Sequence record: OP795442
From: Escherichia phage A7_1
Strand: one strand, 5' to 3'
Length of the DNA stretch: 64,000 nt
Shown here: positions 39,864 to 51,782 of the stretch, piece by piece
How the letters are laid out: every line of letters begins with the position of its first letter
Position numbering within the stretch: the first letter of the stretch is position 1
Notes under the pieces: model-generated
What the model was told of the DNA's origin: nothing
The model's input: the letters and a program-made list of their open reading frames with translations, nothing else
Database searches by the model: none
Made by a program: the position numbers and the translations under genes

Positions 39864-40130
39864 TTAGATATAGTCTACACCAGCTTGTTCCAACAAGTCA
39901 AGTCTCAATTTAAGTTCTTTTTCACGATAATCGGAAACAAGTTTATCCTTTTTCTTTTCTTCTTCCTCAAACTGTTCGAGAGGAAGAATACGAATAATGT
40001 GTTCTGCCTTCATGTAGGACGTTGAACCAATAAGCTGAACATTACCATTTGGTAACAATCGGCCCTTGATCACCCGATAACGAGGGAACAAGTCATATTT
40101 AACAATCGCGGTAACTGCTAGATTACTCAT
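39864..40130 (-). CDS. hypothetical protein
   Basis: 88 aa; Glu/Lys-rich helical C-terminus. Confidence 0.45.
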   Translation of the reverse strand: MSNLAVTAIVKYDLFPRYRVIKGRLLPNGNVQLIGSTSYMKAEHIIRILPLEQFEEEEKKKDKLVSDYREKELKLRLDLLEQAGVDYI

Positions 40131-40500
40131 GTGTATTCTCCATATCGCGAATTCGATCTTCTACCCAACCACGACGATAAATGTTGAGGTAAGATTTACC
40201 TTTTGAACCATGATGGGCATATTCGTCAAAATCAAAATCGAAAGGTGTCTCGGTGTTAAGACCTGCATCAAAGAATTGATTCTTCATTTCGAATTGCACT
40301 TTCATATCTGGATCATTTTTACCTAAAAATGAGGACAAATTAAAACAAAGGCCAGCACCTCGGTAAAAAGCCCCATCTTTTGGTGCACCGATATCTAACC
40401 ATTTTTTATATTCTCGGTAGAAATTCAGAAGTTGCGGACTGCTTTTCATTTTGTTCTCCTCATTTGTTTTGATAGGACTACTATAACATAGTCCTATCAA
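40123..40500 (-). CDS. hypothetical protein (paralog of 50204-50500)
   Basis: Shares WLD.GAP...GLC and FxDAGLN.EFPFD motifs with ORF 50204-50500. Likely true start is ATG 40449 after AGGAGAA (MKSSPQ...); a palindrome lies at 40471-40498. Confidence 0.5.
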   Translation of the reverse strand: MIGLCYSSPIKTNEENKMKSSPQLLNFYREYKKWLDIGAPKDGAFYRGAGLCFNLSSFLGKNDPDMKVQFEMKNQFFDAGLNTETPFDFDFDEYAHHGSKGKSYLNIYRRGWVEDRIRDMENTHE

Positions 40501-40582
40501 CTTGTATACTATTTAATTAAAGATTTTATGAATACTTGGTAGGACCCTTCTTTAAATACTCATCTGGATAATAAAAATCATC

Positions 40583-40960
40583 CTATACTCCAAATGTGGA
40601 TTTGATTTCAGCAATAACCTCATGCACATTGTTTTCGTTTACTTCAAATGTGTAGGACGTTGGTTTAAGGAACGTCTGAGGTGAAACATTAACAAAGAAT
40701 TCAAATTCATCATCAAAAATTTCAAAGTATTTTCCCGGTGTTGATTCTTGACTTTTGAAAACAGTACCATCTTCCATAGTAACAGAAGAAACAGATTTTT
40801 CACCAAGGGTGTATGTTTTTAACTCATCAACAACGAAACTAGGACCGTGACGACGTAGTATTTCAACCATAGTTCGGTTGGCCCCGCAAATACCTGTCCG
40901 CTTAATAAATAACTCTTCACACCGAGGATTGAGAATATAAGTTTTTCCTACTTGCATCAT
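40583..40960 (-). CDS. tandem paralog family member 3
   Basis: 125 aa; shares MxxGKTYxLN, HGPxFVV, EDGxxG and C-terminal IKSTFxx with the two adjacent ORFs. Confidence 0.55.
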   Translation of the reverse strand: MMQVGKTYILNPRCEELFIKRTGICGANRTMVEILRRHGPSFVVDELKTYTLGEKSVSSVTMEDGTVFKSQESTPGKYFEIFDDEFEFFVNVSPQTFLKPTSYTFEVNENNVHEVIAEIKSTFGV

Positions 40961-40970
40961 AACAACCCCC

Positions 40971-41330
40971 TTAGGATAAGTTAAATGTGGATTTGATCAG
41001 GTCGATAGTTTCTTGTGCGTTTTGCTCAGATACTGACACCTGGATAATTTTAAGATCACTGACCTCTTCGAAGTATTTGAACTCAGATTCACGAAGTTCA
41101 AAGTACATTGCCCCACAGCCCACACTGAATGAATCACACCCTACAGCACCATCTTCTGTTGTGATGTTATTAACATACTCATCACCTTCGATCATACTCA
41201 TGTTATTAACAATAAATCGCGGCCCGTGCTCATCCAGAAAAGAAACAATCTCGTGATTGTAACTTGGGTCAGCCTTAATAAATTCTTCCACGAATTTTGG
41301 ATTAAGTTTATAAGTTTTACCTACTTCCAT
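40971..41330 (-). CDS. tandem paralog family member 2
   Basis: 119 aa; same conserved blocks as 40583-40960 and 41342-41716. Confidence 0.55.
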   Translation of the reverse strand: MEVGKTYKLNPKFVEEFIKADPSYNHEIVSFLDEHGPRFIVNNMSMIEGDEYVNNITTEDGAVGCDSFSVGCGAMYFELRESEFKYFEEVSDLKIIQVSVSEQNAQETIDLIKSTFNLS

Positions 41331-41341
41331 CTTTGTTCTCC

Positions 41342-41716
41342 TTACGCCAGGTTAAAGGTAGCTTTAATCAAATCTAAAGTTTCTTGTGCATTACTACGAG
41401 AGACGGCAACCTGAATAATAACAGGGTCTTCATCTTCCCCGACTTCTTTGAAGAAGGGAAATTCACTCTCTGCAAGTTCAAAGTATACACACTTGTTACC
41501 TTCGCAGTCGTGAAAAACGTCACTACCTAAAGTACCATCTTCAAATATGACATTGTTAACATATGCAACATTATCATAGAAGTGGGTGGTGTTGACAACA
41601 AATTTAGGACCGTGCTTATAAATAAGGTCAACCAATTCTTGATTGTAGCTAGGGTCCATATTGATAAAAGCTTTTTCTAAGTCTTTATTAAGAATGTAAG
41701 TTTTTCCGATTTCCAT
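41342..41716 (-). CDS. tandem paralog family member 1
   Basis: 124 aa; same conserved blocks (MEIGKTYILN...HGPKFVV...EDGTLG...LIKATFNLA). Confidence 0.55.
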   Translation of the reverse strand: MEIGKTYILNKDLEKAFINMDPSYNQELVDLIYKHGPKFVVNTTHFYDNVAYVNNVIFEDGTLGSDVFHDCEGNKCVYFELAESEFPFFKEVGEDEDPVIIQVAVSRSNAQETLDLIKATFNLA

Positions 41717-41736
41717 CTTTGCTCTCCTCTTATTTG

Positions 41737-41913
41737 TTGATGAATTGGCTAAGGATTTCGATAAGATCTTTAGCTTGTTTCTTGTCGAGAATCACGCTGT
41801 CTCCTGCATGGCAGATTTCAATAACATCCTCTTCTGCATGATATTCAACTTCCTTTGCATGAAAATCTTCAGTTTCTTTAATCACTTTTACAATGCGCTG
41901 TGTCATCTTGTTT
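41737..41913 (-). CDS. small hypothetical protein (58 aa, not in ORF track)
   Basis: Minus-strand ORF MTQRIVKVIKETEDFHAKEVEYHAEEDVIEICHAGDSVILDKKQAKDLIEILSQFINK with upstream GGGAGAG; fills an otherwise empty gap. Confidence 0.3.
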
Positions 41914-42016
41914 CTCTCCCTTTCTCTCTTTCATCGTTTAGTTTCGATAAGGTGATAGTACATCAACTAACCAATTATTATTTAGCAATTAGTGCTAAAC
42001 GCCATAATCAATCTTA

Positions 42017-42259
42017 TTAATTTTCATTTAATACCCTTAGTGCTCTCTTTTCACAAATATCCCTGAGCCTGATTACCTCTCCTATTAGATAGGAAATAGC
42101 CTTAGCTTGTACTGGTTCATCGTAATCCCCAACCGTCCCAAACACTTCATCGAGAGATAGGAAGAACTCTGAAGAGTAAATACTGTTTTGATCTTCTATA
42201 GCACGGTCTGCATTAAATTTAATATCTTCCAGGGCGCTATTACTGATATTCATAGTCAA
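42017..42259 (-). CDS. hypothetical protein
   Basis: 80 aa; start overlaps the upstream stop (ATGA). Confidence 0.45.
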   Translation of the reverse strand: MTMNISNSALEDIKFNADRAIEDQNSIYSSEFFLSLDEVFGTVGDYDEPVQAKAISYLIGEVIRLRDICEKRALRVLNEN

Positions 42260-42681
42260 ACTCCATAATCTATCTTAACAAGCTTCCCTTTGTAGTATCC
42301 AAAGTTTTTAGGAAATGCGTCGTACTCGAAGAAATCTCGGTCAAGGGTTCTATCTTTATCGTTATCAATCTCATCATAAAGTTTTTGTAGATCAGCTGTA
42401 AATAATTCCTTATTCTCTACTGATTTAGCCTTGTGCATCACAACCATAAGTCCGAATCTGTTTGAGTAAGCTATTGGGCATAGATGCGGGTTATTATACC
42501 CTTTCCACTGACCCTCTGTCATATTGCTGAGCATTCCCTGAACAAACGCCTTCCATGAATTAAATCTTGGGAACTTAATCGCATACTTGTTTGTGATTAT
42601 GACAATTCTCGTCCCACCACTCCTGTTTATCTGCATCTTAATATCTCCAGACCTCGTTACTTGTTTCGATGAGGGCATCAT
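42256..42681 (-). CDS. hypothetical protein with weak kinase-like motifs
   Basis: 141 aa; contains KYAIKFP (reminiscent of a kinase VAIK beta3 lysine) and C-terminal KIDYG (DFG-like). Too short for a full kinase; call is tentative. Confidence 0.45.
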   Translation of the reverse strand: MMPSSKQVTRSGDIKMQINRSGGTRIVIITNKYAIKFPRFNSWKAFVQGMLSNMTEGQWKGYNNPHLCPIAYSNRFGLMVVMHKAKSVENKELFTADLQKLYDEIDNDKDRTLDRDFFEYDAFPKNFGYYKGKLVKIDYGV

Positions 42682-42718
42682 ACCAGAATGAATCTGTGTG
42701 TCAACACTTTTTATTCAG

Positions 42719-42748
42719 ATAATAAAAAACCACCCCGAAGGGTGGTTT
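42719..42748 (-). terminator. rho-independent terminator (minus strand)
   Basis: Minus strand reads AACCACC-CTTCGG-GGTGGTT followed by TTTTTTATT; just downstream of the stop at 42752. Confidence 0.7.
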
Positions 42749-42751
42749 AAA

Positions 42752-43276
42752 TTAATTGCACAGGATGGTCTTTATAGCTGCATCAACTTCTGGACCTTCC
42801 TTACCGATAAAAGAAGCAAGACCCTTAAGTTTACAGGCTTCATACACTGCCCTAGCTTCTTCTTTTGTCCTGTATCTCCCAATATGTTTTTTGTTGATCT
42901 TGACCCTCCATTTCTGGCGATCTTCTTCCCAAGATATGCCTTTTCTTTTTGTCCAGTAACGATTAAGGTCACCGGAGATAAACAGGCAGGTTTCTGGTGA
43001 ATATACCTTACCGCCTTTTAAATCTTTATCAAGGCACTTCCCCTTCCAATCCTTTGTTTGCATCCACGCTTTGAAATTGCTAAACCTGAGCCACTCTTCA
43101 CAGACGGTAGTCCCCTCATAAGAGGGGTCCCTTGACAAAGCGCCCTGATCGTAACAACGTTGAAGCATACTCATCCATCGCATGTAGAATGGGCACATCT
43201 TTTCGTCTGGCCTAACATTGTAACCTGCGTCGTTTATACCCTTTCCGTAAACCATAAAAAACTCCTTATAAATCAA
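42752..43276 (-). CDS. AP2-domain DNA-binding protein (homing endonuclease-associated family)
   Basis: 174 aa; C-terminal KGISWEEDRQKWRVKINKKHIGRYRTKEEARAVYE fits the AP2 pattern (G.SW....KW...I....IG.Y....A..AY); directly downstream of the DNA polymerase. Confidence 0.5.
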   Translation of the reverse strand: MIYKEFFMVYGKGINDAGYNVRPDEKMCPFYMRWMSMLQRCYDQGALSRDPSYEGTTVCEEWLRFSNFKAWMQTKDWKGKCLDKDLKGGKVYSPETCLFISGDLNRYWTKRKGISWEEDRQKWRVKINKKHIGRYRTKEEARAVYEACKLKGLASFIGKEGPEVDAAIKTILCN

Positions 43277-43282
43277 TAACTA

Positions 43283-45937
43283 CTAATGGCACGCCCCCCA
43301 GTTCATCCCTGTGAGGTATTCTCCAGTTATCATCACTGGTGATTTCATCATCTTAGCTGCTTGTTCGACACAACGAACAACCATCTCTCCTACAGGGCAG
43401 TATGTAATAGTGAAGATACCATTTTCATCAGGATCACACTTAAACTTCCCTTCTTTCACACAATGACCATCTAAGACCATCTTCTTAGCCAAGCAAGCTT
43501 CTACAAATTTTTTCGCGTCAGCTTCGTTGTCAAAGGTCCAGGTCTTCTTGAACTTGTGTGGCACTTCAAGCTGGTATTCATCATGATAGTAAATGATACG
43601 GCGAACACCTTCATCATACCAACCTTTCTTAACCAACTGCCAGTGCAGGAGGATACCTACCAAGTCAAACAGTGCAGCACCACCATTCTGCTGATAAGCA
43701 TTAAGCAATGAGTGTTTGGAACGAGTGTAGATCTTACGTCCATCAAGACCGTAGATGAATCGCTTACCGTTAGCTTCCCAAAACTTCTCTAGTGCTTCTT
43801 TACGACCTTTCAAGCCGATGTTGCTATCCCAGAATGCGTCGATTACTGCCTGGGCCTTCTCAAGAGTGATCCCCAGCATTGATGCAATCTTCGCTGCCTG
43901 TGCCCCGTACATAATTCCGTATGTCACACCTTTACCTTCACCACGAGAAACCTTCTTCCCTGCCGCTTTGGTATACGCTTCTGCGTTTCGGGAGTGAGCA
44001 TCTCCAGATTCCATGATACGAAGATAAGCGCCACCATCGAAATCATACGCGCCCCATGCCGCGATCATACCTTCCAAGTTTGAACCGTCGATACCTACCT
44101 GATATTTACCCTCGGAGGCTCTAAACAGTTCACGCATCTCTTTACCGAGAAGAACTTTCTCATCCGGCTTAGGTACGTTTGCTACGATCGTATGCTTACG
44201 ACGACCTGTGTTAGTTATTCCACTATAACGGGCCGGAAGTTTACCGTCAACCCGTAGACGTGGATGGTTAAGCCATCCGGTATCAACCTTCTCTTCTTTC
44301 AGTGGGTCAAGAACAGATCGTCGGTTACGTAAAGACAGCCATTTAACAATCTGTTTAGCCATTTCACCATCTACTCGCTCAAGGTTAGGGCAAAGACCCT
44401 GCTGATCCTTAAGTTGTGGAGATGTTGGTAATGCACGGGCTTTCTTCCTGAAGAACTTATACATCTTCTCTTTATCTTGCCACTGCTTACCACTGATACC
44501 TAAACTTTTCAGAATCAGATCGCGATATTCAGTCTGGTCAAGATCATCAATATATTGACGAACAATGATATCGACTTCGTTATCGGGACGTTGTTTCTTA
44601 AACTGGTCCTTCGTCGCATCTTTAGTTCGCCACAATGTTGGGACCCAACCAGCATCACGAATAAGGAATTTTTTAACGTCATCCTGATTACCAATACGCA
44701 TCGGGATCATAATGTCCGGCATCTTTTGTTCTTTGATATCCATCAAAGCACGAGCCATATCTTCCGGCGGCAAAGGAACAAGCCCTTGCTGCTTAACGTT
44801 TTGTGCACGGATAAAATCACCCATTTTGGATTCATCTTCTACACCGTGTTCAACACAATACTTGATCGCGGCGGCAGTAAGAGATCCGTCAGCCTTAAAC
44901 GGCTTACTTGGTGCACCTTTAAACTCTAATGCTTCCCAATTGATATTATAACCTAACTTCTCTAACCATTTCCAACCTGTACCGGAAAGAGATCCATCAC
45001 CCTTGAAAGGCTTAGATGGGAATGTCGGTTGTGCTGATTTCGACATTTCTTTCTTCGGTAACTTAGGTTCAACCTCTAACTCAATGTCTGTCATCATCTT
45101 ATCGATACGATCACGGAGCTTGAGTGCTTTTTCTTCATCAAATGAAACACCCTGAATCTCTTGCTCAATCATCAGGTAGTCGGTCAGCATACCTCGACGC
45201 AGGGCATTCTTCCAGTTGATCATTTTAAACTTCTTCTGATCTTTGTCTGTTTCATCCTTAAACATGAAGCGTTTATCATCTGGCATGGATTCACAAGAGA
45301 TCTCTTTCATCAGAGCATCCCACACCATTTCGTTGATAATTACGTCTTCAATAATACGATCGCAATATTTCCAAAGTGGAAGGCCACGCCAATCTTCAAT
45401 CGCCACTTTCTGGTTGGCTACTCGCATACCCCAAGCTTCAAGCCCGTGAGGGCCTACAGGCTTCATTTTACCTGTGACTGGGTTCTTTACCATCTCGGGA
45501 CAACCACGAGGCAGAGGGCGATCTGGATACAATGTACGGGACATTGAAAGTGTATCGAAGATGTTTACTTGTTTACCATTAATCGTACCCATGCAACCAG
45601 GGTCTGCAAACATATCGTAAGTTGTTCCAAGCATCTTCTTAAACAACTGGAGGTCGTAGCCGAAGATGTTGTGGATAGCAATTGCTTTAGGCTCTGTGAC
45701 AAACCACTCGTTTAATTCCTCAATGGTCCGAATCTTAAAGTTTTTACCTTTAGATTGGATAAATTTAACAGCTTGATCGTAACCTTCCCGCTGGGGATCA
45801 AGAAAGATGTTCCAGTTATCTTTTTTATACTCTTTAAACAAGACGCAGTGAATCAGATCAACCTCTGTCAATAGACCATTCGCTTCCGCATCTCCAATAA
45901 ATAAGCCTTTCATTTTTTCTCCTTCTTCAAGCTCCAA
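43283..45937 (-). CDS. DNA polymerase, family A (T7 gp5 / Pol I-like) with 3'-5' exonuclease
   Basis: 884 aa; exo I motif FIGDAEANG (D.E) at N-terminus; motif B RGEGKGVTYGIMYGAQAAK and motif C YYHDEYQ. Confidence 0.9.
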   Translation of the reverse strand: MELEEGEKMKGLFIGDAEANGLLTEVDLIHCVLFKEYKKDNWNIFLDPQREGYDQAVKFIQSKGKNFKIRTIEELNEWFVTEPKAIAIHNIFGYDLQLFKKMLGTTYDMFADPGCMGTINGKQVNIFDTLSMSRTLYPDRPLPRGCPEMVKNPVTGKMKPVGPHGLEAWGMRVANQKVAIEDWRGLPLWKYCDRIIEDVIINEMVWDALMKEISCESMPDDKRFMFKDETDKDQKKFKMINWKNALRRGMLTDYLMIEQEIQGVSFDEEKALKLRDRIDKMMTDIELEVEPKLPKKEMSKSAQPTFPSKPFKGDGSLSGTGWKWLEKLGYNINWEALEFKGAPSKPFKADGSLTAAAIKYCVEHGVEDESKMGDFIRAQNVKQQGLVPLPPEDMARALMDIKEQKMPDIMIPMRIGNQDDVKKFLIRDAGWVPTLWRTKDATKDQFKKQRPDNEVDIIVRQYIDDLDQTEYRDLILKSLGISGKQWQDKEKMYKFFRKKARALPTSPQLKDQQGLCPNLERVDGEMAKQIVKWLSLRNRRSVLDPLKEEKVDTGWLNHPRLRVDGKLPARYSGITNTGRRKHTIVANVPKPDEKVLLGKEMRELFRASEGKYQVGIDGSNLEGMIAAWGAYDFDGGAYLRIMESGDAHSRNAEAYTKAAGKKVSRGEGKGVTYGIMYGAQAAKIASMLGITLEKAQAVIDAFWDSNIGLKGRKEALEKFWEANGKRFIYGLDGRKIYTRSKHSLLNAYQQNGGAALFDLVGILLHWQLVKKGWYDEGVRRIIYYHDEYQLEVPHKFKKTWTFDNEADAKKFVEACLAKKMVLDGHCVKEGKFKCDPDENGIFTITYCPVGEMVVRCVEQAAKMMKSPVMITGEYLTGMNWGACH

Positions 45938-46078
45938 CTAGACTAAAACAAAGCCCAGCCGGAGGTATGACCCTTCGGCTAGGTTATCAAAAGTGTCGGT
46001 ATCCTTCATCAATAAAATAAAGCATCACTAACAGGGCGAATACCCCACATAAGAAGATCAAGCCCAATAAGGTGGGCA

Positions 46079-46354
46079 TCAGTCTTCTATTACCTCAAAT
46101 TCACCACTAAAAGCTACGATAGTTTCACCGTAGCCCATGTTCAATCGGGCAGTTGTAGGTTTGCCATTCCTAGATAGATAGTACACCCTCGCTTCGTAAA
46201 TGTCACCAACTTTTACACCGTAAGCCTGTAGGTCTTTGTTATTGATATCTTTATTTTCAGCATTGATTATTCGAACACTGCTGATCTCTGAGTATACAGA
46301 ATTATCTTTCATCAGTATTTTTCCTCTGGACGGAAAACTCCACGGCAAGCCCAC
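46079..46354 (-). CDS. hypothetical protein
   Basis: 91 aa ORF; overlaps the upstream gene by about 40 nt, so the start may be at an internal Met. Confidence 0.4.
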   Translation of the reverse strand: MGLPWSFPSRGKILMKDNSVYSEISSVRIINAENKDINNKDLQAYGVKVGDIYEARVYYLSRNGKPTTARLNMGYGETIVAFSGEFEVIED

Positions 46355-46596
46355 ATACTTGCTTCTTTGAGGCGATCTTTAGCCTTAGATAAGCAATCAG
46401 ATGCAAAAAGCACGGAATCTAGATCCCCTTCGGGAATCGAAGAGTCATTAGCCAGTCGATTATATTCCTCAATAATCTCGTCTTCTAATGCTTTTAAAAT
46501 AAGACCTAAACGAATTTCAGCATCTTTAATGGCATTCACCTTACCGATTTTTTCATCGGTGTGTGGTTTGTAGCCCTTAATGTCATCAATAGCCAT
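46312..46596 (-). CDS. hypothetical protein
   Basis: 94 aa helical ORF; ATGA overlap with the upstream gene. Confidence 0.45.
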   Translation of the reverse strand: MAIDDIKGYKPHTDEKIGKVNAIKDAEIRLGLILKALEDEIIEEYNRLANDSSIPEGDLDSVLFASDCLSKAKDRLKEASMWACRGVFRPEEKY

Positions 46597-47090
46597 TACC
46601 AGTCCTCCTCTGTTTGTTCATACTCTGAAGGGGTGATGAAGTAATTCTGACCCCGCTTGCACTGGTTGAAAGTCCCAACATACCAAGTACCGATATCCAT
46701 GTTGATGAAAGTTTCTTCTTGAACAAAGATCAGATCAGCAAGATTATTGTCTGATCGTTGGGTCGCTAACAAAATATGCTCAAAATCTGCCAACGTCATG
46801 TTATAAGAGAAACCATCTTCGTCCTCCATAACCGCAACAACAGAACTGCGCCCCTGAGTGAATTGACGAAACTGTAAACGTAAATGACGATGCTCATGTT
46901 CATTCGTCTTTACCTTTTTCCGATTTTCAAAGTATTCTTCGGAATAATACGGATGCTTTAACTTTAGCTTTTCAATCTCTTCTAAAGAAAGAGCGTCCTT
47001 GTCCCAACCAGTGAACCATTTACCGTTATGATCAAATACCGCAGGGTATTTACGCTTACTTAAATCTTTAAACATCATAATCCTCCCCAT
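46596..47090 (-). CDS. hypothetical protein
   Basis: 164 aa; His-rich segment (EHEHRH). Confidence 0.5.
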   Translation of the reverse strand: MGRIMMFKDLSKRKYPAVFDHNGKWFTGWDKDALSLEEIEKLKLKHPYYSEEYFENRKKVKTNEHEHRHLRLQFRQFTQGRSSVVAVMEDEDGFSYNMTLADFEHILLATQRSDNNLADLIFVQEETFINMDIGTWYVGTFNQCKRGQNYFITPSEYEQTEEDW

Positions 47091-47400
47091 AAATATCTTG
47101 AATTTTTGAACTTAGGTATTCAGGATCGCTACCATCATACCAGACTTCTACGAAAACCTTTTGGGAACCTTTAACGATCTTTGCACCGACTCTTTCAATA
47201 CCTTTAAAGAAAGATTGCAAGATGTAATCATCTAACACGTTTACTCCATAAGCATCGTGGAGGGATTTTTCATTGTGAACATACACAACCATCTTACCAT
47301 CATAGGTGATTTGGATATGGGGATCATCTTCCCAAGTAATAGCCGGAGAATCCGGCTCAAGCTTTGCAATAACACCAATAGTCAATCGGTTGTCACTCAC
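47068..47400 (-). CDS. hypothetical protein
   Basis: 110 aa; start overlaps the stop of the GHKL-like gene (ATGA). Confidence 0.5.
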   Translation of the reverse strand: MSDNRLTIGVIAKLEPDSPAITWEDDPHIQITYDGKMVVYVHNEKSLHDAYGVNVLDDYILQSFFKGIERVGAKIVKGSQKVFVEVWYDGSDPEYLSSKIQDIYGEDYDV

Positions 47401-48614
47401 TCTTTACCCCCTGCGATGCGTAACATTTTGATAGTTTTCTCCAGTTCTTTACGAGGTTTAGCAACTAAACGACGTTCGTGTCGCTTCAGGAAGCCTTCTA
47501 AGAACTCTAGCGGTTTAAAGGATAACACTTCCTGTACTGATTCGTCAACAGCATACTCTTTCTGGACCATACGATAAACCGGATTTTTTACAGTTACAGG
47601 AGTATAACCCTTCGTGATCGCCATCTGAGTAACAACACGTTTCTTACCGTCGGTCCACGAATCGTCAATAGGGAAAGAATCTTTTCCGTATTTTTCAGCG
47701 AACAACTTAACTGCTGTCTTTGTCAGGTCGTCCTGATCTTCTTGTGACCGACTTTGACCCCAATAATAGCCACCAGAGGTCTTAGCACGACGTTCTGAGA
47801 ACAAAGCAAGGTCATCGTACTGCTCAAGAGCTAAACGCGCCAGAAGCTCGATATCGTCGCTTTCTGACAGTAGTCGGTTTGCTTCATACTTAACCTCAAA
47901 AGTATTTGCACTATCACGATCACGGTCAAGAGTAAAGGCTTCCGGCTTAAAATCATAATCGAATTTAAAATTACCTGGAACACGAGTAACGAACAGTCCA
48001 TTTACAAACAGGTTGCAGTCGCCACCTGTGATAGAGCCATCCTCTTCTTCATTTTGGTATTCGTCCGCAGCATTGTATAGCTTAGTATAAGCTTTACCGC
48101 GGTCATTCTGAATAACGACTGTACGTTCAGTAGTTGGTGCATAGTTATCCATAATTTCCGACATAGCGTACTGAGGGATGTTTTCAATGATAACGGTCAC
48201 AGTATTTGAATCACGACCCGATAAGGCGTTTTCATGGATATCCACCGCCAAAATGTTCTGTTCGTATGTGGTATCGTAAACCATATTTGGAATCCAAAGA
48301 TCATTACCATTTTCGATAACGATATCTGCGCCTTCACGAACAAGCACCAGAAGACCCACTTTCAGACCTTCACCAAACTTACCGATCTTACTGTCATCAT
48401 CACGTTTGGTTGAAACACCCATCAAAAGGCCGGAAACAGGAACAACACCGCCACGAGAGATGATTGTGATCTTACCTTGATTACTATCATCATTCCCAAA
48501 ATAAATATTGAAATCTTCTGTATCGATAGCATTTTGCATGAGTTCACGAGCACCTTGCCACCATGACCAGTGGCTGACGTAATTTTCAGTGATGCTCAAT
48601 TTAATCTGTTTCAT
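47397..48614 (-). CDS. GHKL-family (Hsp90 / MutL / MORC-like) ATPase-domain protein
   Basis: 405 aa; N-box-like ELMQNAIDT (consensus EL..NA.DA) followed by Gly-rich boxes (RGG; GKFGEGLKVG), the Bergerat ATP-binding fold; C-terminal 200 aa unassigned. Confidence 0.6.
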   Translation of the reverse strand: MKQIKLSITENYVSHWSWWQGARELMQNAIDTEDFNIYFGNDDSNQGKITIISRGGVVPVSGLLMGVSTKRDDDSKIGKFGEGLKVGLLVLVREGADIVIENGNDLWIPNMVYDTTYEQNILAVDIHENALSGRDSNTVTVIIENIPQYAMSEIMDNYAPTTERTVVIQNDRGKAYTKLYNAADEYQNEEEDGSITGGDCNLFVNGLFVTRVPGNFKFDYDFKPEAFTLDRDRDSANTFEVKYEANRLLSESDDIELLARLALEQYDDLALFSERRAKTSGGYYWGQSRSQEDQDDLTKTAVKLFAEKYGKDSFPIDDSWTDGKKRVVTQMAITKGYTPVTVKNPVYRMVQKEYAVDESVQEVLSFKPLEFLEGFLKRHERRLVAKPRKELEKTIKMLRIAGGKE

Positions 48615-48626
48615 TTATTTGTCCTC

Positions 48627-49343
48627 TTATTTGTTGTATTGATAAATTGCTTCAGCTAAGCCCCGTGGGGTTAGTGACCGGATCATCTTAGTTCTTGCTG
48701 ACTTACCTCCTAACTTATTCTGCTGATCTGACCAACCAGGTGCAACAGGAACCGGAGAGGTTTTTGGAATTATAAACCCATTTCCTGTCCAAAGTCCAGT
48801 CTTTTTCGGATAAGCATCCCTTGGTTTAATGTATTGAGGAAAATAAGGGTTAACATCATTTACCGGAAGGTAACCGCCATATTCCCAAGGGTTAAAATAT
48901 ACAGTAGGTTTTCGCCATTGTCCAGCTAAAACACTTACTGGGTTTTCAATCATATACGGACAATCGAAAACAAATTCAGCAAGCCAAGCTGCAATCTTCG
49001 CAGTTCTTACCGCCTTGACCTGGAAGAAAGGATCTTTTGCTTTCTTCGATGCAAAGTGACGAGAACCACTAACAGCCATATCGGTACATGGAGGATAGGC
49101 AAGGATCAGGTCCGGCGCAGGCAATCCTAAGTTCTCTACATTCTCCATCCATTCAATATCGATAAAGGCGTTAACGTAAGTGATGTTGGGATGAATTTCC
49201 TTTACGCCTTCATAATCCCCGTGATCAGCATCGTCATAGTTGAAGCAGTAGCATTTGTGCCCTGCCTTCGCCCAGGGAAGAACATCAATCCCTGAACCAG
49301 AAAAGAGACTCCAGATAATCTTTTTATTCATCGTAGCATCCAA
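48627..49343 (-). CDS. C5-methyltransferase-like protein (minimal catalytic core, no obvious target-recognition domain)
   Basis: 238 aa; motif I LFSGSG (F.G.G), motif IV PPCTDMAVSG (catalytic Pro-Cys), motif VI IENP (ENV-like), QWR after it; order matches the C5-MTase catalytic domain. Confidence 0.55.
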   Translation of the reverse strand: MDATMNKKIIWSLFSGSGIDVLPWAKAGHKCYCFNYDDADHGDYEGVKEIHPNITYVNAFIDIEWMENVENLGLPAPDLILAYPPCTDMAVSGSRHFASKKAKDPFFQVKAVRTAKIAAWLAEFVFDCPYMIENPVSVLAGQWRKPTVYFNPWEYGGYLPVNDVNPYFPQYIKPRDAYPKKTGLWTGNGFIIPKTSPVPVAPGWSDQQNKLGGKSARTKMIRSLTPRGLAEAIYQYNK

Positions 49344-49636
49344 ATAGTGGTTAATTTACAAATACACCAGAAAATCCCGATCAGTGTAGCCAGAGTAATA
49401 ACACAAGTCAATACTATAGGTAAGAATATCGTCATAATCACTGCAAAAACTGAAATACCTATGCTTGCAATAAGATCCGGCACGAAATAGTGAAATGGAT
49501 CTCTTGCCTTTTTAATGTTGTCCCATGTTATTACTACGGAGCTAAGGACGAGCCAGAATAAAAAGTACAAAATGCAAGGAAATAAAGTCATGTGTGACTT
49601 AACCATATCAAACCACATGTTGTAGAATTCAATCAT
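49328..49636 (-). CDS. small membrane protein
   Basis: 102 aa, three hydrophobic segments. Confidence 0.45.
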   Translation of the reverse strand: MIEFYNMWFDMVKSHMTLFPCILYFLFWLVLSSVVITWDNIKKARDPFHYFVPDLIASIGISVFAVIMTIFLPIVLTCVITLATLIGIFWCICKLTTIWMLR

Positions 49637-49956
49637 TCAGTTTTCCTCGGTACAGATGCAATAACAGCCTTTTCGACGAGACATACAATAAATCTCCCAA
49701 TCCCTGCCAAAAGGAGAGCAAAGACTGTAAAAGGCAACCCATAAATAAGAACCAAAATCATCAATCCAAAACAAGCGGAAAACAGGACTTCTGTGCCTAG
49801 CCACATTTTGGAGTAATTGATATAATTATGCCGCAATTTTAAAAACAGTCCAGCAATAGAGCCTACAGAAAATATACCAATCAACCAAGGTGCAGTTACA
49901 AATGAACGACTGAACCCTTCCCAAAAAACAAAAACATTAATGATTGCTTCGATCAT
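49633..49956 (-). CDS. small membrane protein
   Basis: 107 aa, hydrophobic throughout; ATGA overlaps on both sides. Confidence 0.45.
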   Translation of the reverse strand: MIEAIINVFVFWEGFSRSFVTAPWLIGIFSVGSIAGLFLKLRHNYINYSKMWLGTEVLFSACFGLMILVLIYGLPFTVFALLLAGIGRFIVCLVEKAVIASVPRKTE

Positions 49957-50207
49957 AAACCATACCTCGCTTCATATAAGAATTCATCAAGATCTTTACT
50001 GTCGTCGGAACCTTCTACTGTCAACGGCATCAGGTGTTCTTTGAAATAATAGCAAAGATTGCCGGAACTCGTTTCCACTAAACATGTGGTTTTGCAAACC
50101 ATCTTAACTTTCACCGATAGTCCCGCATCTTCATGGCTGTGGACCATTGCAAGACAACCATCATAAAGCTTATCCTCGTAAGGTAAGCAAGGATCTGGAT
50201 TTTTCAT
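49953..50207 (-). CDS. hypothetical Cys-containing protein
   Basis: 84 aa with several Cys residues. Confidence 0.45.
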   Translation of the reverse strand: MKNPDPCLPYEDKLYDGCLAMVHSHEDAGLSVKVKMVCKTTCLVETSSGNLCYYFKEHLMPLTVEGSDDSKDLDEFLYEARYGL

Positions 50208-50500
50208 CGTGAACTTTCCTCCTCCGCATGTTTACGCACCCATTCTACACGGGACGCGTTCAGGTGTTTGTTATCGTCGTAGTGATACGCTTTCCAACCT
50301 TCGTCGAAAGGGAACTCCCAGTTCAGTCCGGCATCGGTAAACTGTTGCTGCATCTCTTTGAGTAACTTATAGTCACACTCTGAAAACTCTTCCAGTGCGT
50401 TACACAGACCGCAGGTCCGATCAAACGTCTCGGAGTGTGGTGCACCAGCGTCAAGCCACTCAGCATAGGCTTTATAGAATGCTTTAAGTTGCTCGCTCAT
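50204..50500 (-). CDS. hypothetical protein (paralog of 40123-40500)
   Basis: 98 aa; shares WLDAGAP...CGLCNAL...FTDAGLNWEFPFDEG with ORF 40123-40500. Confidence 0.5.
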   Translation of the reverse strand: MSEQLKAFYKAYAEWLDAGAPHSETFDRTCGLCNALEEFSECDYKLLKEMQQQFTDAGLNWEFPFDEGWKAYHYDDNKHLNASRVEWVRKHAEEESSR

Positions 50501-50896
50501 TTATTTATCCTCTGCATATGCAATCTTAGTCATGTAGTCAATACAATCATATTGAACATTGTGGCTATTAAAAACAGCCTTGTCTTTGTAAATAACTTGC
50601 CAATAATCAATGCTTTCAATTTCGGAAAGGTATGCAACACACTCCCCTTTTGGATTAATAAGTTCAACTCGATCAGTTTCTCGTAATTTCCAACCAGTAG
50701 GTAACTGAACAGCTTGTTCCTTAAAAATCACAATATCGTCACGGTGACCAGTTGCCCTTTTAAATGCCCGCAGTAATTCTTTGTATTCACGATATTTCAC
50801 ATAAAGGCCGTCCTCTGATTTTTCCATACGGGCTTCATTGATATTGCAATTACCATCCATATCTCCAACCAGGTCGTAACGATATACAGGTTTCAT
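50501..50896 (-). CDS. hypothetical protein
   Basis: 131 aa ORF immediately following the upstream stop. Confidence 0.5.
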   Translation of the reverse strand: MKPVYRYDLVGDMDGNCNINEARMEKSEDGLYVKYREYKELLRAFKRATGHRDDIVIFKEQAVQLPTGWKLRETDRVELINPKGECVAYLSEIESIDYWQVIYKDKAVFNSHNVQYDCIDYMTKIAYAEDK

Positions 50897-51695: not shown

Positions 51696-51753
51696 TTGTT
51701 TCTCCTTTCTGTTTGGTATGGGAGAAGTATAGGGGAGTTTAGGAGGGGTGTCA

Positions 51754-51782
51754 ATAGAAAAACCGCCCGAAGGCGGTTTATT
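51754..51782 (-). terminator. rho-independent terminator after primase-helicase (minus strand)
   Basis: Minus strand reads AAACCGCC-TTCG-GGCGGTTT followed by TTCTATT; downstream of the stop at 51793. Confidence 0.65.

Follow-up and report, generated by a model that had tools for sequence, protein, structure and literature searches.

Phage genomes are rich in small paralogous ORFs, so a pair of related small genes such as the one described here, named genes A and B, is in itself routine. One described relative of this pair is gp3 of phage N4 (ABK54374.1), which is recognized by the HMM built for the family (E=1e-21) and keeps its W, GLC, PF and HLN..R..W signatures. In N4 this gene sits in the early block transcribed by the vRNAP, after gp1 and gp2, in an order that is also kept in another N4-like contig. 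N4 gp3 is only 29–32% identical to A and B and is single-copy in the N4 region examined, and N4 belongs to the Schitoviridae, another phage family with a different transcription strategy. Our literature search returned nothing on the function of N4 gp3, as the seeming mentions of "gp3" corresponded to gp30, gp32 or gp33, nor any relevant paper in which N4-like early genes were connected with anti-defence. A second relative is encoded by Shigella phage Sf12 (gp18/gp19, YP_009791990.1; Drexlerviridae), and it is the closest one to B outside its own genus among named phage records, with 68–69% amino acid identity and 77% nucleotide identity over 276 nt, although the Sf12 genome is that of an unrelated 48-kb siphovirus and the flanking genes differ. 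A comparable genomic behaviour is that of the FRD2 genes (PF03197), which are also small, non-structural, multi-copy genes from the early or replication regions of large lytic phages, arranged in tandem or dispersed, but unrelated in sequence and provided with a Pfam model that the A/B family lacks.

The window, which is the whole stretch of 64,000 nucleotides analysed here, corresponds to a Septuagintavirus-type E. coli myophage (Vequintavirinae) and is around 97% identical to phage A5-4. Genes A (40123–40449, 108 aa) and B (50204–50500, 98 aa) are both encoded on the minus strand. The homology between their products, already proposed in the preliminary description, was confirmed by BLASTP (41/93 identities, 44% over 93 aa; 68.6 bits, E=1e-21) and by comparison with shuffled controls, as the Smith–Waterman score of 169 was far above those of 2000 shuffles (26.7 ± 4.8, maximum 57; z=29.5). 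Three shared sequence blocks had been described and all of them are present, the first as FYREYKKWLDIGAP in A and FYKAYAEWLDAGAP in B, the second as GLCFNL in A versus GLCNAL in B, and the third as FFDAGLNTETPFD in A and FTDAGLNWEFPFD in B. From the first of these it follows that the second motif position has to be read as E/A rather than as E. No further copies were detected with tblastn and the family HMM in the 64-kb window, and tblastn also located only two sites in the complete genome of A5-4, the near-identical phage. Both genes lie in a minus-strand block where small genes are found together with replication genes and sigma-70-like promoters; this setting is consistent with an early or middle region, in agreement with the early assignment made before.

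Gene A matches phrog_2510 (E=1.8e-22) and the family HMM built from 94 members (E=3e-31), and can be described as N4-gp3-like. Its start is likely the ATG at 40449, located 8 nt after an AGGAG sequence, in agreement with the annotation of four relatives, where the CDS has 327 nt. Therefore, of the ORF limits proposed before, those of B were correct, whereas the 40500 end given for A is the farthest upstream TTG, which falls inside a hairpin. This 13-bp hairpin (40500–40469, minus strand) is located around 20 nt upstream of the start of A and is predicted to fold with −18.4 kcal/mol (z=−4.7), a stability that was equalled by 0 of 200 shuffled sequences. It is overlapped by a weak promoter-like site, TATACA-17-TATAGT (40508–40480, minus strand), with 9 out of 12 matches in the promoter scan, so that the two elements together occupy 40469..40508. 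The orthologues of A in A5-4, W70, UPEC06 and LTH01 show 97–100% amino acid identity with dN/dS values of 0.00–0.06, the pattern of a stable gene of the phage genus under strong purifying selection. A gene of the FRD2 family adjoins A.

The situation at the B locus is quite different between sibling phages. B (phrog_2510 E=2.1e-25; family HMM E=8e-35) is 100% identical in A5-4, is represented by a 65%-identical allele in two further siblings, W70 and A73, and is lacking in UPEC06 and LTH01. Two 10-nt direct repeats mark the borders of the segment on the minus strand, the upstream or left-hand copy, ATGCAGAGGA (50508..50517), at the 3' end of the preceding gene (50501–50896), and the downstream or right-hand copy, ATGCGGAGGA (50220..50229), in the last codons of B itself. 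The repeats are spaced 288 nt, this is, 96 codons in frame, and in the alignment UPEC06 and LTH01 have only one ATATGCAGAGGAGGAAGG at the place that repeat, B and repeat occupy in the window. The homology with the Sf12 gene stops exactly at the right-hand repeat. B is thus an accessory, horizontally exchanged cassette that behaves as a 288-nt in-frame insertion. The insertion probably proceeded by recombination at the 10-nt microhomology ATGC[A/G]GAGGA, which the upstream gene and an incoming family member shared at their ends, and the ATGA in which a stop overlaps the start codon of the following gene was preserved. Alternatively, UPEC06 and LTH01 could have lost the segment by deletion, and the direction towards insertion is suggested by the composition of B, whose GC3 of 0.53 is an outlier with respect to the neighbouring genes (0.36 ± 0.07). 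Between the window and W70, the B alleles have a dS of 0.61 with a dN/dS of 0.38, inside a 1.6-kb segment where the overall nucleotide divergence is around 5–7%. The gene string that contains B is headed by a terminator-like hairpin (51779–51760, minus strand), after which comes a strong putative sigma-70-like promoter, TTGACA-17-TATACT (51754–51726, minus strand), both within 51726..51779; the promoter is a pattern match from a consensus scan (11/12).

The pair had been interpreted as the result of an intragenomic duplication. For a gene recently copied around 10 kb away inside the genome, with later divergence of the copies, it can be argued that the products are clearly homologous and that a single genome encodes both on the same strand, and that L010, L011 and phAPEC8 carry adjacent or clustered copies resembling local duplications. 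The data do not favour this origin, to which we give very little credit. Among 188 family representatives, B ranks only 20th in closeness to A and A ranks 96th in closeness to B, and for either protein many closer relatives belong to unrelated phages. The identity between A and B at third codon positions is 34%, with synonymous sites that are saturated (pS 0.86), and blastn did not find any significant DNA match between them, either in the genes or in their flanks. In addition, A has a GC3 of 0.30, far from that of B, and B is more similar to the gene of an unrelated siphovirus than to A, besides being present or absent among siblings. From the ranks, the saturation, the GC3 values, the identity to Sf12 and the cassette, we conclude that, as judged from these sequence comparisons, the pair is made of two anciently separated family members, of which at least B was horizontally acquired.

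The family to which both genes belong was matched by PHROG 2510 through A, B and also N4 gp3 (E=7.8e-24). At least 1,537 representatives of 50% identity clusters were found at E≤1e-3, of which 645 remained at E≤1e-10. Members were found in phages of alpha-, beta- and gamma-proteobacteria, and the named matches were all from phages or from one P1-like phage-plasmid, the latter being the single match in a search against plasmids. A scan of 185,579 bacterial and archaeal genomes, limited to a single peptide pattern, did not find any relative. The copy number can be high, with seven copies within the initial 30 kb of phAPEC8 and another seven in one 7.6-kb metagenomic contig, and tandem fusions of two and three units were also found (P0007, P0011 and P0141). 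PHROG 2510 and the related phrog_6418, 2176 and 27059 are all annotated as "unknown function", and every named relative as "hypothetical protein". A and B match PHROG 2510 at full length and share with it the unit of around 100 aa and the hallmark residues, but the profile has 219 positions and single-domain proteins match only the first 110 or so, a length that would fit two-domain fusions. Neither A nor B had matches near the curated cut-offs of Pfam and NCBIfam, or in PADLOC at E≤1; among the 94 members, Pfam produced one spurious match in one member at E≤0.01, and the scans of divergent copies and fusion proteins with the three collections gave nothing meaningful. The extra domains of the fusion proteins matched PHROG families of "unknown function" and, weakly, one labelled as "kinase" (2e-5), and the gene neighbourhoods in three metagenomic contigs were blocks of small unannotated genes. 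Literature searches found no paper mentioning phrog_2510 and nothing relevant on the paralogs of phAPEC8, and the A and B genes are not discussed in a Septuagintavirus paper. In conclusion, this is a phage-restricted family of proteins of around 100 aa, predicted to be all-helical, without a Pfam or NCBIfam model.

The conserved cysteine and aromatic residues noticed before in the pair turned out to be nearly invariant along the family. Counted over 206 domains, and with the numbering of B, Cys33 was conserved in 204/206, Arg84 in 205/205, Pro64 in 205/205, Phe65 in 204/205 and Trp15 in 203/206. The hallmarks W15, G31-L32-C33, P64-F65, N81, R84 and W87 are all found in A and B, and each is kept in at least 90% of the domains. 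Asn81, Glu49, Gln53 and His/Tyr79 are conserved in 83–92%, and the segments between conserved residues vary freely. The small folded domain that had been anticipated is supported by prediction, since the AlphaFold2 model of B (pLDDT 91.1, pTM 0.81) shows five helices (3–17, 32–39, 44–56, 69–74 and 82–93). When two models were compared with the PDB by Foldseek, no match fell below E=1, the best values being 3.5 for this model and 1.7 for an earlier one, and sequence and profile searches against the PDB gave best E values of 0.19–0.27 for unrelated or chance matches (bL21m, phospholipase B-like). Against BFVD, Foldseek found only uncharacterised phage proteins of a similar kind, with TM values about 0.6.

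Regarding their function, we infer that the A and B proteins are cytoplasmic, non-structural and expressed early, the timing being deduced from gene position and consensus promoters only. Mass spectrometry (MS/MS) of W70 virions identified 28 proteins (PMC11370258), and the main text of that paper does not mention the orthologues of A and B (W70_73 and W70_90). Our best guess is that A and B would be non-structural early accessory proteins that bind a ligand or a host target, for host takeover or counter-defence. The conservation of Cys33, Glu49, Gln53, Asn81, Arg84, Trp15/87 and Pro64-Phe65, while the segments between them vary, leads us to propose a conserved pocket; as Foldseek found no similar solved structure, it is from sequence conservation that this pocket is deduced. 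Through it, a small ligand or host component, itself conserved, would be bound or acted on by each copy, and the variable surface would tune the specificity. The expansion to up to seven copies per genome, the double and triple tandem fusions and the exchange of cassettes would then reflect an arms race around host takeover or counter-defence, against which counts that the overall dN/dS of the B alleles is below 1 and thus does not demonstrate positive selection. Alternatively, these residues could simply form the core on which a scaffold folds, with different proteins as its binding partners. Taken as a whole, the reading that joins the ancient divergence, the B cassette and an early accessory binder of a ligand or host target with a role in the arms race is one towards which we lean slightly. 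A broader proposal, in which the family would be an unrecognised class of phage effectors for counter-defence or host takeover, having a new all-helical fold and a conserved Cys/Arg/Asn/Glu pocket that binds or modifies a conserved small molecule or host factor, with specificity diversified through paralogs, fusions and cassettes, is made only tentatively and would be rather a surprise to us if it were right in full. PDB and Foldseek searches showed no fold or sequence similarity to characterised phage counter-defence proteins of solved structure.

Other functions can be considered with the same residues in mind. The family might be a small enzyme that uses Cys33 as nucleophile, with the help of Arg84, Asn81, Glu49 and His79, on a nucleotide-like or other small substrate, and such conservation of polar positions across phages of very different hosts, with Cys33 and Arg84 essentially invariant, is unusual for a pure protein-binding scaffold. 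We regard it as unlikely, because no enzyme matches this all-helical domain of around 95 aa in fold or in sequence, His79 and His91 can be replaced (A has Tyr and Arg at these positions), and seven copies per genome would be unusual for an enzyme. A zinc site formed by Cys33, His79 and His91 was set aside because the histidines are not conserved, and a cysteine protease because a conserved His is absent.

A stoichiometric inhibitor or DNA mimic that, like Ocr or ArdA, blocks restriction or other host proteins directed at DNA would be in consonance with the acidic character of B (pI 4.8, net charge −9) and with the C5-cytosine-methyltransferase-like gene found four genes downstream of it in the same gene string. 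However, A is only mildly acidic (pI 5.9), the family has a median pI of 5.5 that extends from 4.65 at the 10th percentile to 8.5 at the 90th, and the fold found no counterpart among solved structures with Foldseek, so we consider this role quite improbable. Hardly any credit is given to a divergent HEPN-like RNase, which the R84-x6-H91 spacing in the last helix could recall by its resemblance to the Rx4-6H motif. The domain is all-alpha and roughly of HEPN size, and the invariant R84 is followed seven residues later by a His in 152/198 domains, but this His91 is absent in about a quarter of the members, A included, none of the 94 members (0/94) matched the HEPN-type models of Pfam at E≤0.01, and no HEPN structure appeared among the Foldseek matches in the PDB. 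That A and B are chance ORFs or decaying pseudogenes without function, for which nothing but the lack of annotation speaks, can practically be dismissed in view of the purifying selection on A, the family HMM scores of both, their intact ribosome-binding sites and the confident fold prediction.

The interest of this pair resides in that it points to a very large phage-only family missing from Pfam, with a confidently predicted yet unmatched fold, a few near-invariant polar residues and as many as seven copies in one genome, and to which the classic model phage N4 contributes gp3. The junctions of the B cassette offer a clean case in which a gene was inserted through microhomology, with the frame preserved, between phage genes that are translationally coupled. 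Furthermore, the B locus is a natural experiment, as the gene is present in some siblings, absent from others and replaced by another allele in the rest, and because the siblings differ at this locus, a phenotype in host range or defence is directly testable.

Paralog A (40123-40449, minus strand, 108 aa) and paralog B (50204-50500, minus strand, 98 aa) had been read in the preliminary description as a dispersed pair, about 10 kb apart, derived by intragenomic duplication of a small folded protein. Their products are homologous, with 44% identity across 93 residues (E=1e-21) and a local alignment score of 169 against 26.7±4.8 in 2000 shuffles (z=29.5), and the sequence blocks cited for them occur in both, with minor spelling differences. 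The observation of the pair is therefore confirmed and its interpretation is borne out in part, but the claim of duplication is not. A and B are real genes. The ORFs were first given as 40123-40500 and 50204-50500; the most upstream start of A, a TTG at 40500, lies within a 13-bp hairpin, and an ATG at 40449, with AGGAG ahead, gives the 108-aa product and matches the annotation in four relatives. In the four relatives extracted, the A protein is 97-100% identical despite synonymous divergence of up to 0.28, with dN/dS of 0.00-0.06; B scores 8e-35 against the family HMM. Neither tblastn nor the family HMM found a third copy within the window, and only two family loci were detected by tblastn in the whole A5-4 genome.

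The region 40000-50600 is 96.7% identical to Escherichia phage A5-4 (95% coverage) and 94-95% identical to W70, A73, UPEC06 and vB_EcoM-LTH01 (LTH01), all Vequintavirinae; these five phages belong to the newly described genus Septuagintavirus (PMC11370258). The minus-strand gene block of the window starts at about 34 kb and holds numerous small ORFs as well as genes for a family-A DNA polymerase and a primase/helicase, and one that resembles a C5-methyltransferase.

Both proteins match PHROG 2510 ("unknown function"; A 1e-22, B 1e-25), with weaker matches to phrog_6418, 2176 and 27059; scans of the two proteins, 94 members, the divergent copies and the fusions against Pfam, NCBIfam and PADLOC gave no matching model. 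When 1.84 billion cluster representatives were searched with a profile, 1,537 family proteins passed E<=1e-3 and 645 passed E<=1e-10. Most are of 93-125 aa, some are made of two or three domains in tandem, and a few bear an extension of unknown kind or a Cys motif resembling a zinc ribbon. All named matches are to phages, namely phAPEC8- and phi92-like myoviruses, N4 and N4-like podoviruses of Erwinia, Achromobacter and Klebsiella, Drexlerviridae, phages of Rhizobium, Ralstonia, Pseudomonas, Delftia and Burkholderia, and jumbo phages; the sole plasmid match is a P1-like phage-plasmid, and one pattern-limited scan of bacterial genomes gave no relative. N4 gp3 belongs to the family (HMM 1e-21, phrog_2510 7.8e-24), and its gene follows gp1 and gp2 in the early block of N4, a position preserved in another N4-like contig. 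Copy number varies greatly, from two in the window to seven, the number counted both in the first 30 kb of phAPEC8 and in a 7.6-kb stretch of metagenomic phage contig. Local duplication looks likely behind the copies in phAPEC8 and the contig, in contrast to the A/B pair. Several of them adjoin one another.

Across 206 domain instances, W15 (203/206), C33 (204/206), P64 (205/205), F65 (204/205) and R84 (205/205), in B numbering, are near-invariant; G31 is kept in 199, L32 in 198 and W87 in 197/205, followed at 83-98% by F8, Y9, G19, F26, E49, Q53, F54, N81 and V88. Variation is largely unconstrained at residues 22-25, 29-30, 37-48, 60-62 and 67-78, except at L46, Y72 and E75. The small folded domain proposed for the pair is supported by the AlphaFold2 model of B, which predicts five helices (pLDDT 91.1, pTM 0.81, 94-sequence alignment; pLDDT 82 in an earlier model from seven sequences). 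Foldseek with both models against 350,542 PDB chains gave nothing below E=1, and PDB sequence and profile searches gave chance-level matches only; within reach of the tools used, the predicted fold is without a match.

A recent copying event is contradicted by several comparisons. Among 188 family representatives, B ranks 20th for A and A ranks 96th for B; synonymous change has reached saturation (pS 0.86), third codon positions agree in 34% of cases, and blastn of the genes with 1.3-1.4 kb of surrounding sequence found nothing significant. GC3 of A (0.30) is in line with local composition, and that of B is 0.53 against 0.364±0.074 for 48 minus-strand ORFs, the top value among ORFs not nested in a larger one. 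A gene of Sf12, a Drexlerviridae siphovirus, is 68-69% identical to B in protein and 77% in DNA. Judging from these sequences, the two genes did not arise by recent duplication within the genome.

B is a swappable, horizontally acquired cassette. Its gene is identical in A5-4, W70 has an allele 65% identical at the same position, hit counts suggest the like for A73, and the gene is missing from this site in UPEC06 and LTH01. The indel is 288 nt, in-frame, and bordered by ATGCAGAGGA (50517-50508) and ATGCGGAGGA (50229-50220), and the Sf12 homology breaks off exactly at ...AAACATGCGGAG. In phages without B, the "Eae"-annotated gene 5' of the site ends in ...KIAYAEEEGSQ (stop) and in the window in ...KIAYAEDK (stop), because the cassette junction falls within its last codons; the tail ...HAEEESSR (stop) now belongs to B, as does the ATGA shared with the following gene. 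The window agrees fully with W70 over the gene's first 30 nt and everywhere downstream of the gene, while the interior falls to a minimum of 53-60% identity per 30-nt window. With a dS of 0.61, compared with about 5-7% nucleotide divergence in the surrounding 1.6 kb, this indicates that the allele was replaced and did not diverge in place. As the composition of B is foreign, insertion seems favoured over deletion. We regard this evolutionary account as a whole as highly probable.

The "Eae protein" gene of relatives (50501-50896, -), upstream of B, has no Pfam match at E<=0.01 and no PHROG match at 1e-5. Farther upstream, at 51779-51726, pattern matches point to a hairpin of terminator type and a sigma-70-like promoter close to consensus. 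Downstream of B, the same gene string (47397-49956, -) includes two short ORFs of 107 and 102 aa that look hydrophobic and membrane-like by eye, a C5-cytosine-methyltransferase-like gene (48627-49343, -; phrog_757 5e-78) and a 405-aa protein matching phrog_6077 (unknown function), whose N-terminal ELMQNAIDT may resemble a GHKL-ATPase N-box.

About 20 nt 5' of the A start codon, the hairpin at 40469-40500 (-; 13 bp, -18.4 kcal/mol, z=-4.7) overlaps a -10-like TATAGT, has no T-run after the stem, and may serve in processing, stability or regulation. A5-4 has an additional 243-nt gene in the intergenic region upstream of A. Directly 5' of A, three tandem paralogs (40583-41716, -; 125, 119 and 124 aa) start with M(E/M)(V/I/Q)GKTY.LN, the first matching Pfam FRD2 (PF03197, 3.5e-20) and phrog_622; they are a second multi-copy small-gene family within this block, unrelated to A/B. 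The polymerase gene (43283-45937, -; 884 aa) is intact here and in UPEC06. At window point 43582/43583, A5-4, W70 and LTH01 carry an insertion of about 770 nt that includes an ORF of about 0.5 kb (492-519 nt), splits the annotated CDS and is probably an intron or homing-endonuclease element. Just downstream of the polymerase gene, an HNH/AP2-type homing-endonuclease-like gene (42752-43276, -; phrog_953 5e-58, weak Pfam AP2) has no DNA match in homologous regions of A5-4, W70, UPEC06 and LTH01, so it looks like an insertion particular to this phage.

Nothing in the searchable literature addresses N4 gp3 or PHROG 2510, and the main text of the W70 virion proteome paper (PMC11370258) does not name the A/B orthologues. 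Several conserved polar residues persist in phages of alpha-, beta- and gamma-proteobacteria. Enzyme, HEPN-like and DNA-mimic functions are alternative readings. In our judgement, the polar conservation, the variable loops, the multiplication of paralogs, the tandem fusions and the exchange of the cassette tentatively suggest, at rather less than even confidence, an accessory protein made early, with a conserved site for binding a ligand or target, that may act in host takeover or counter-defence. A and B are an ordinary pair within a known but uncharacterised phage protein family, and this orphan family merits a Pfam entry and experiment.
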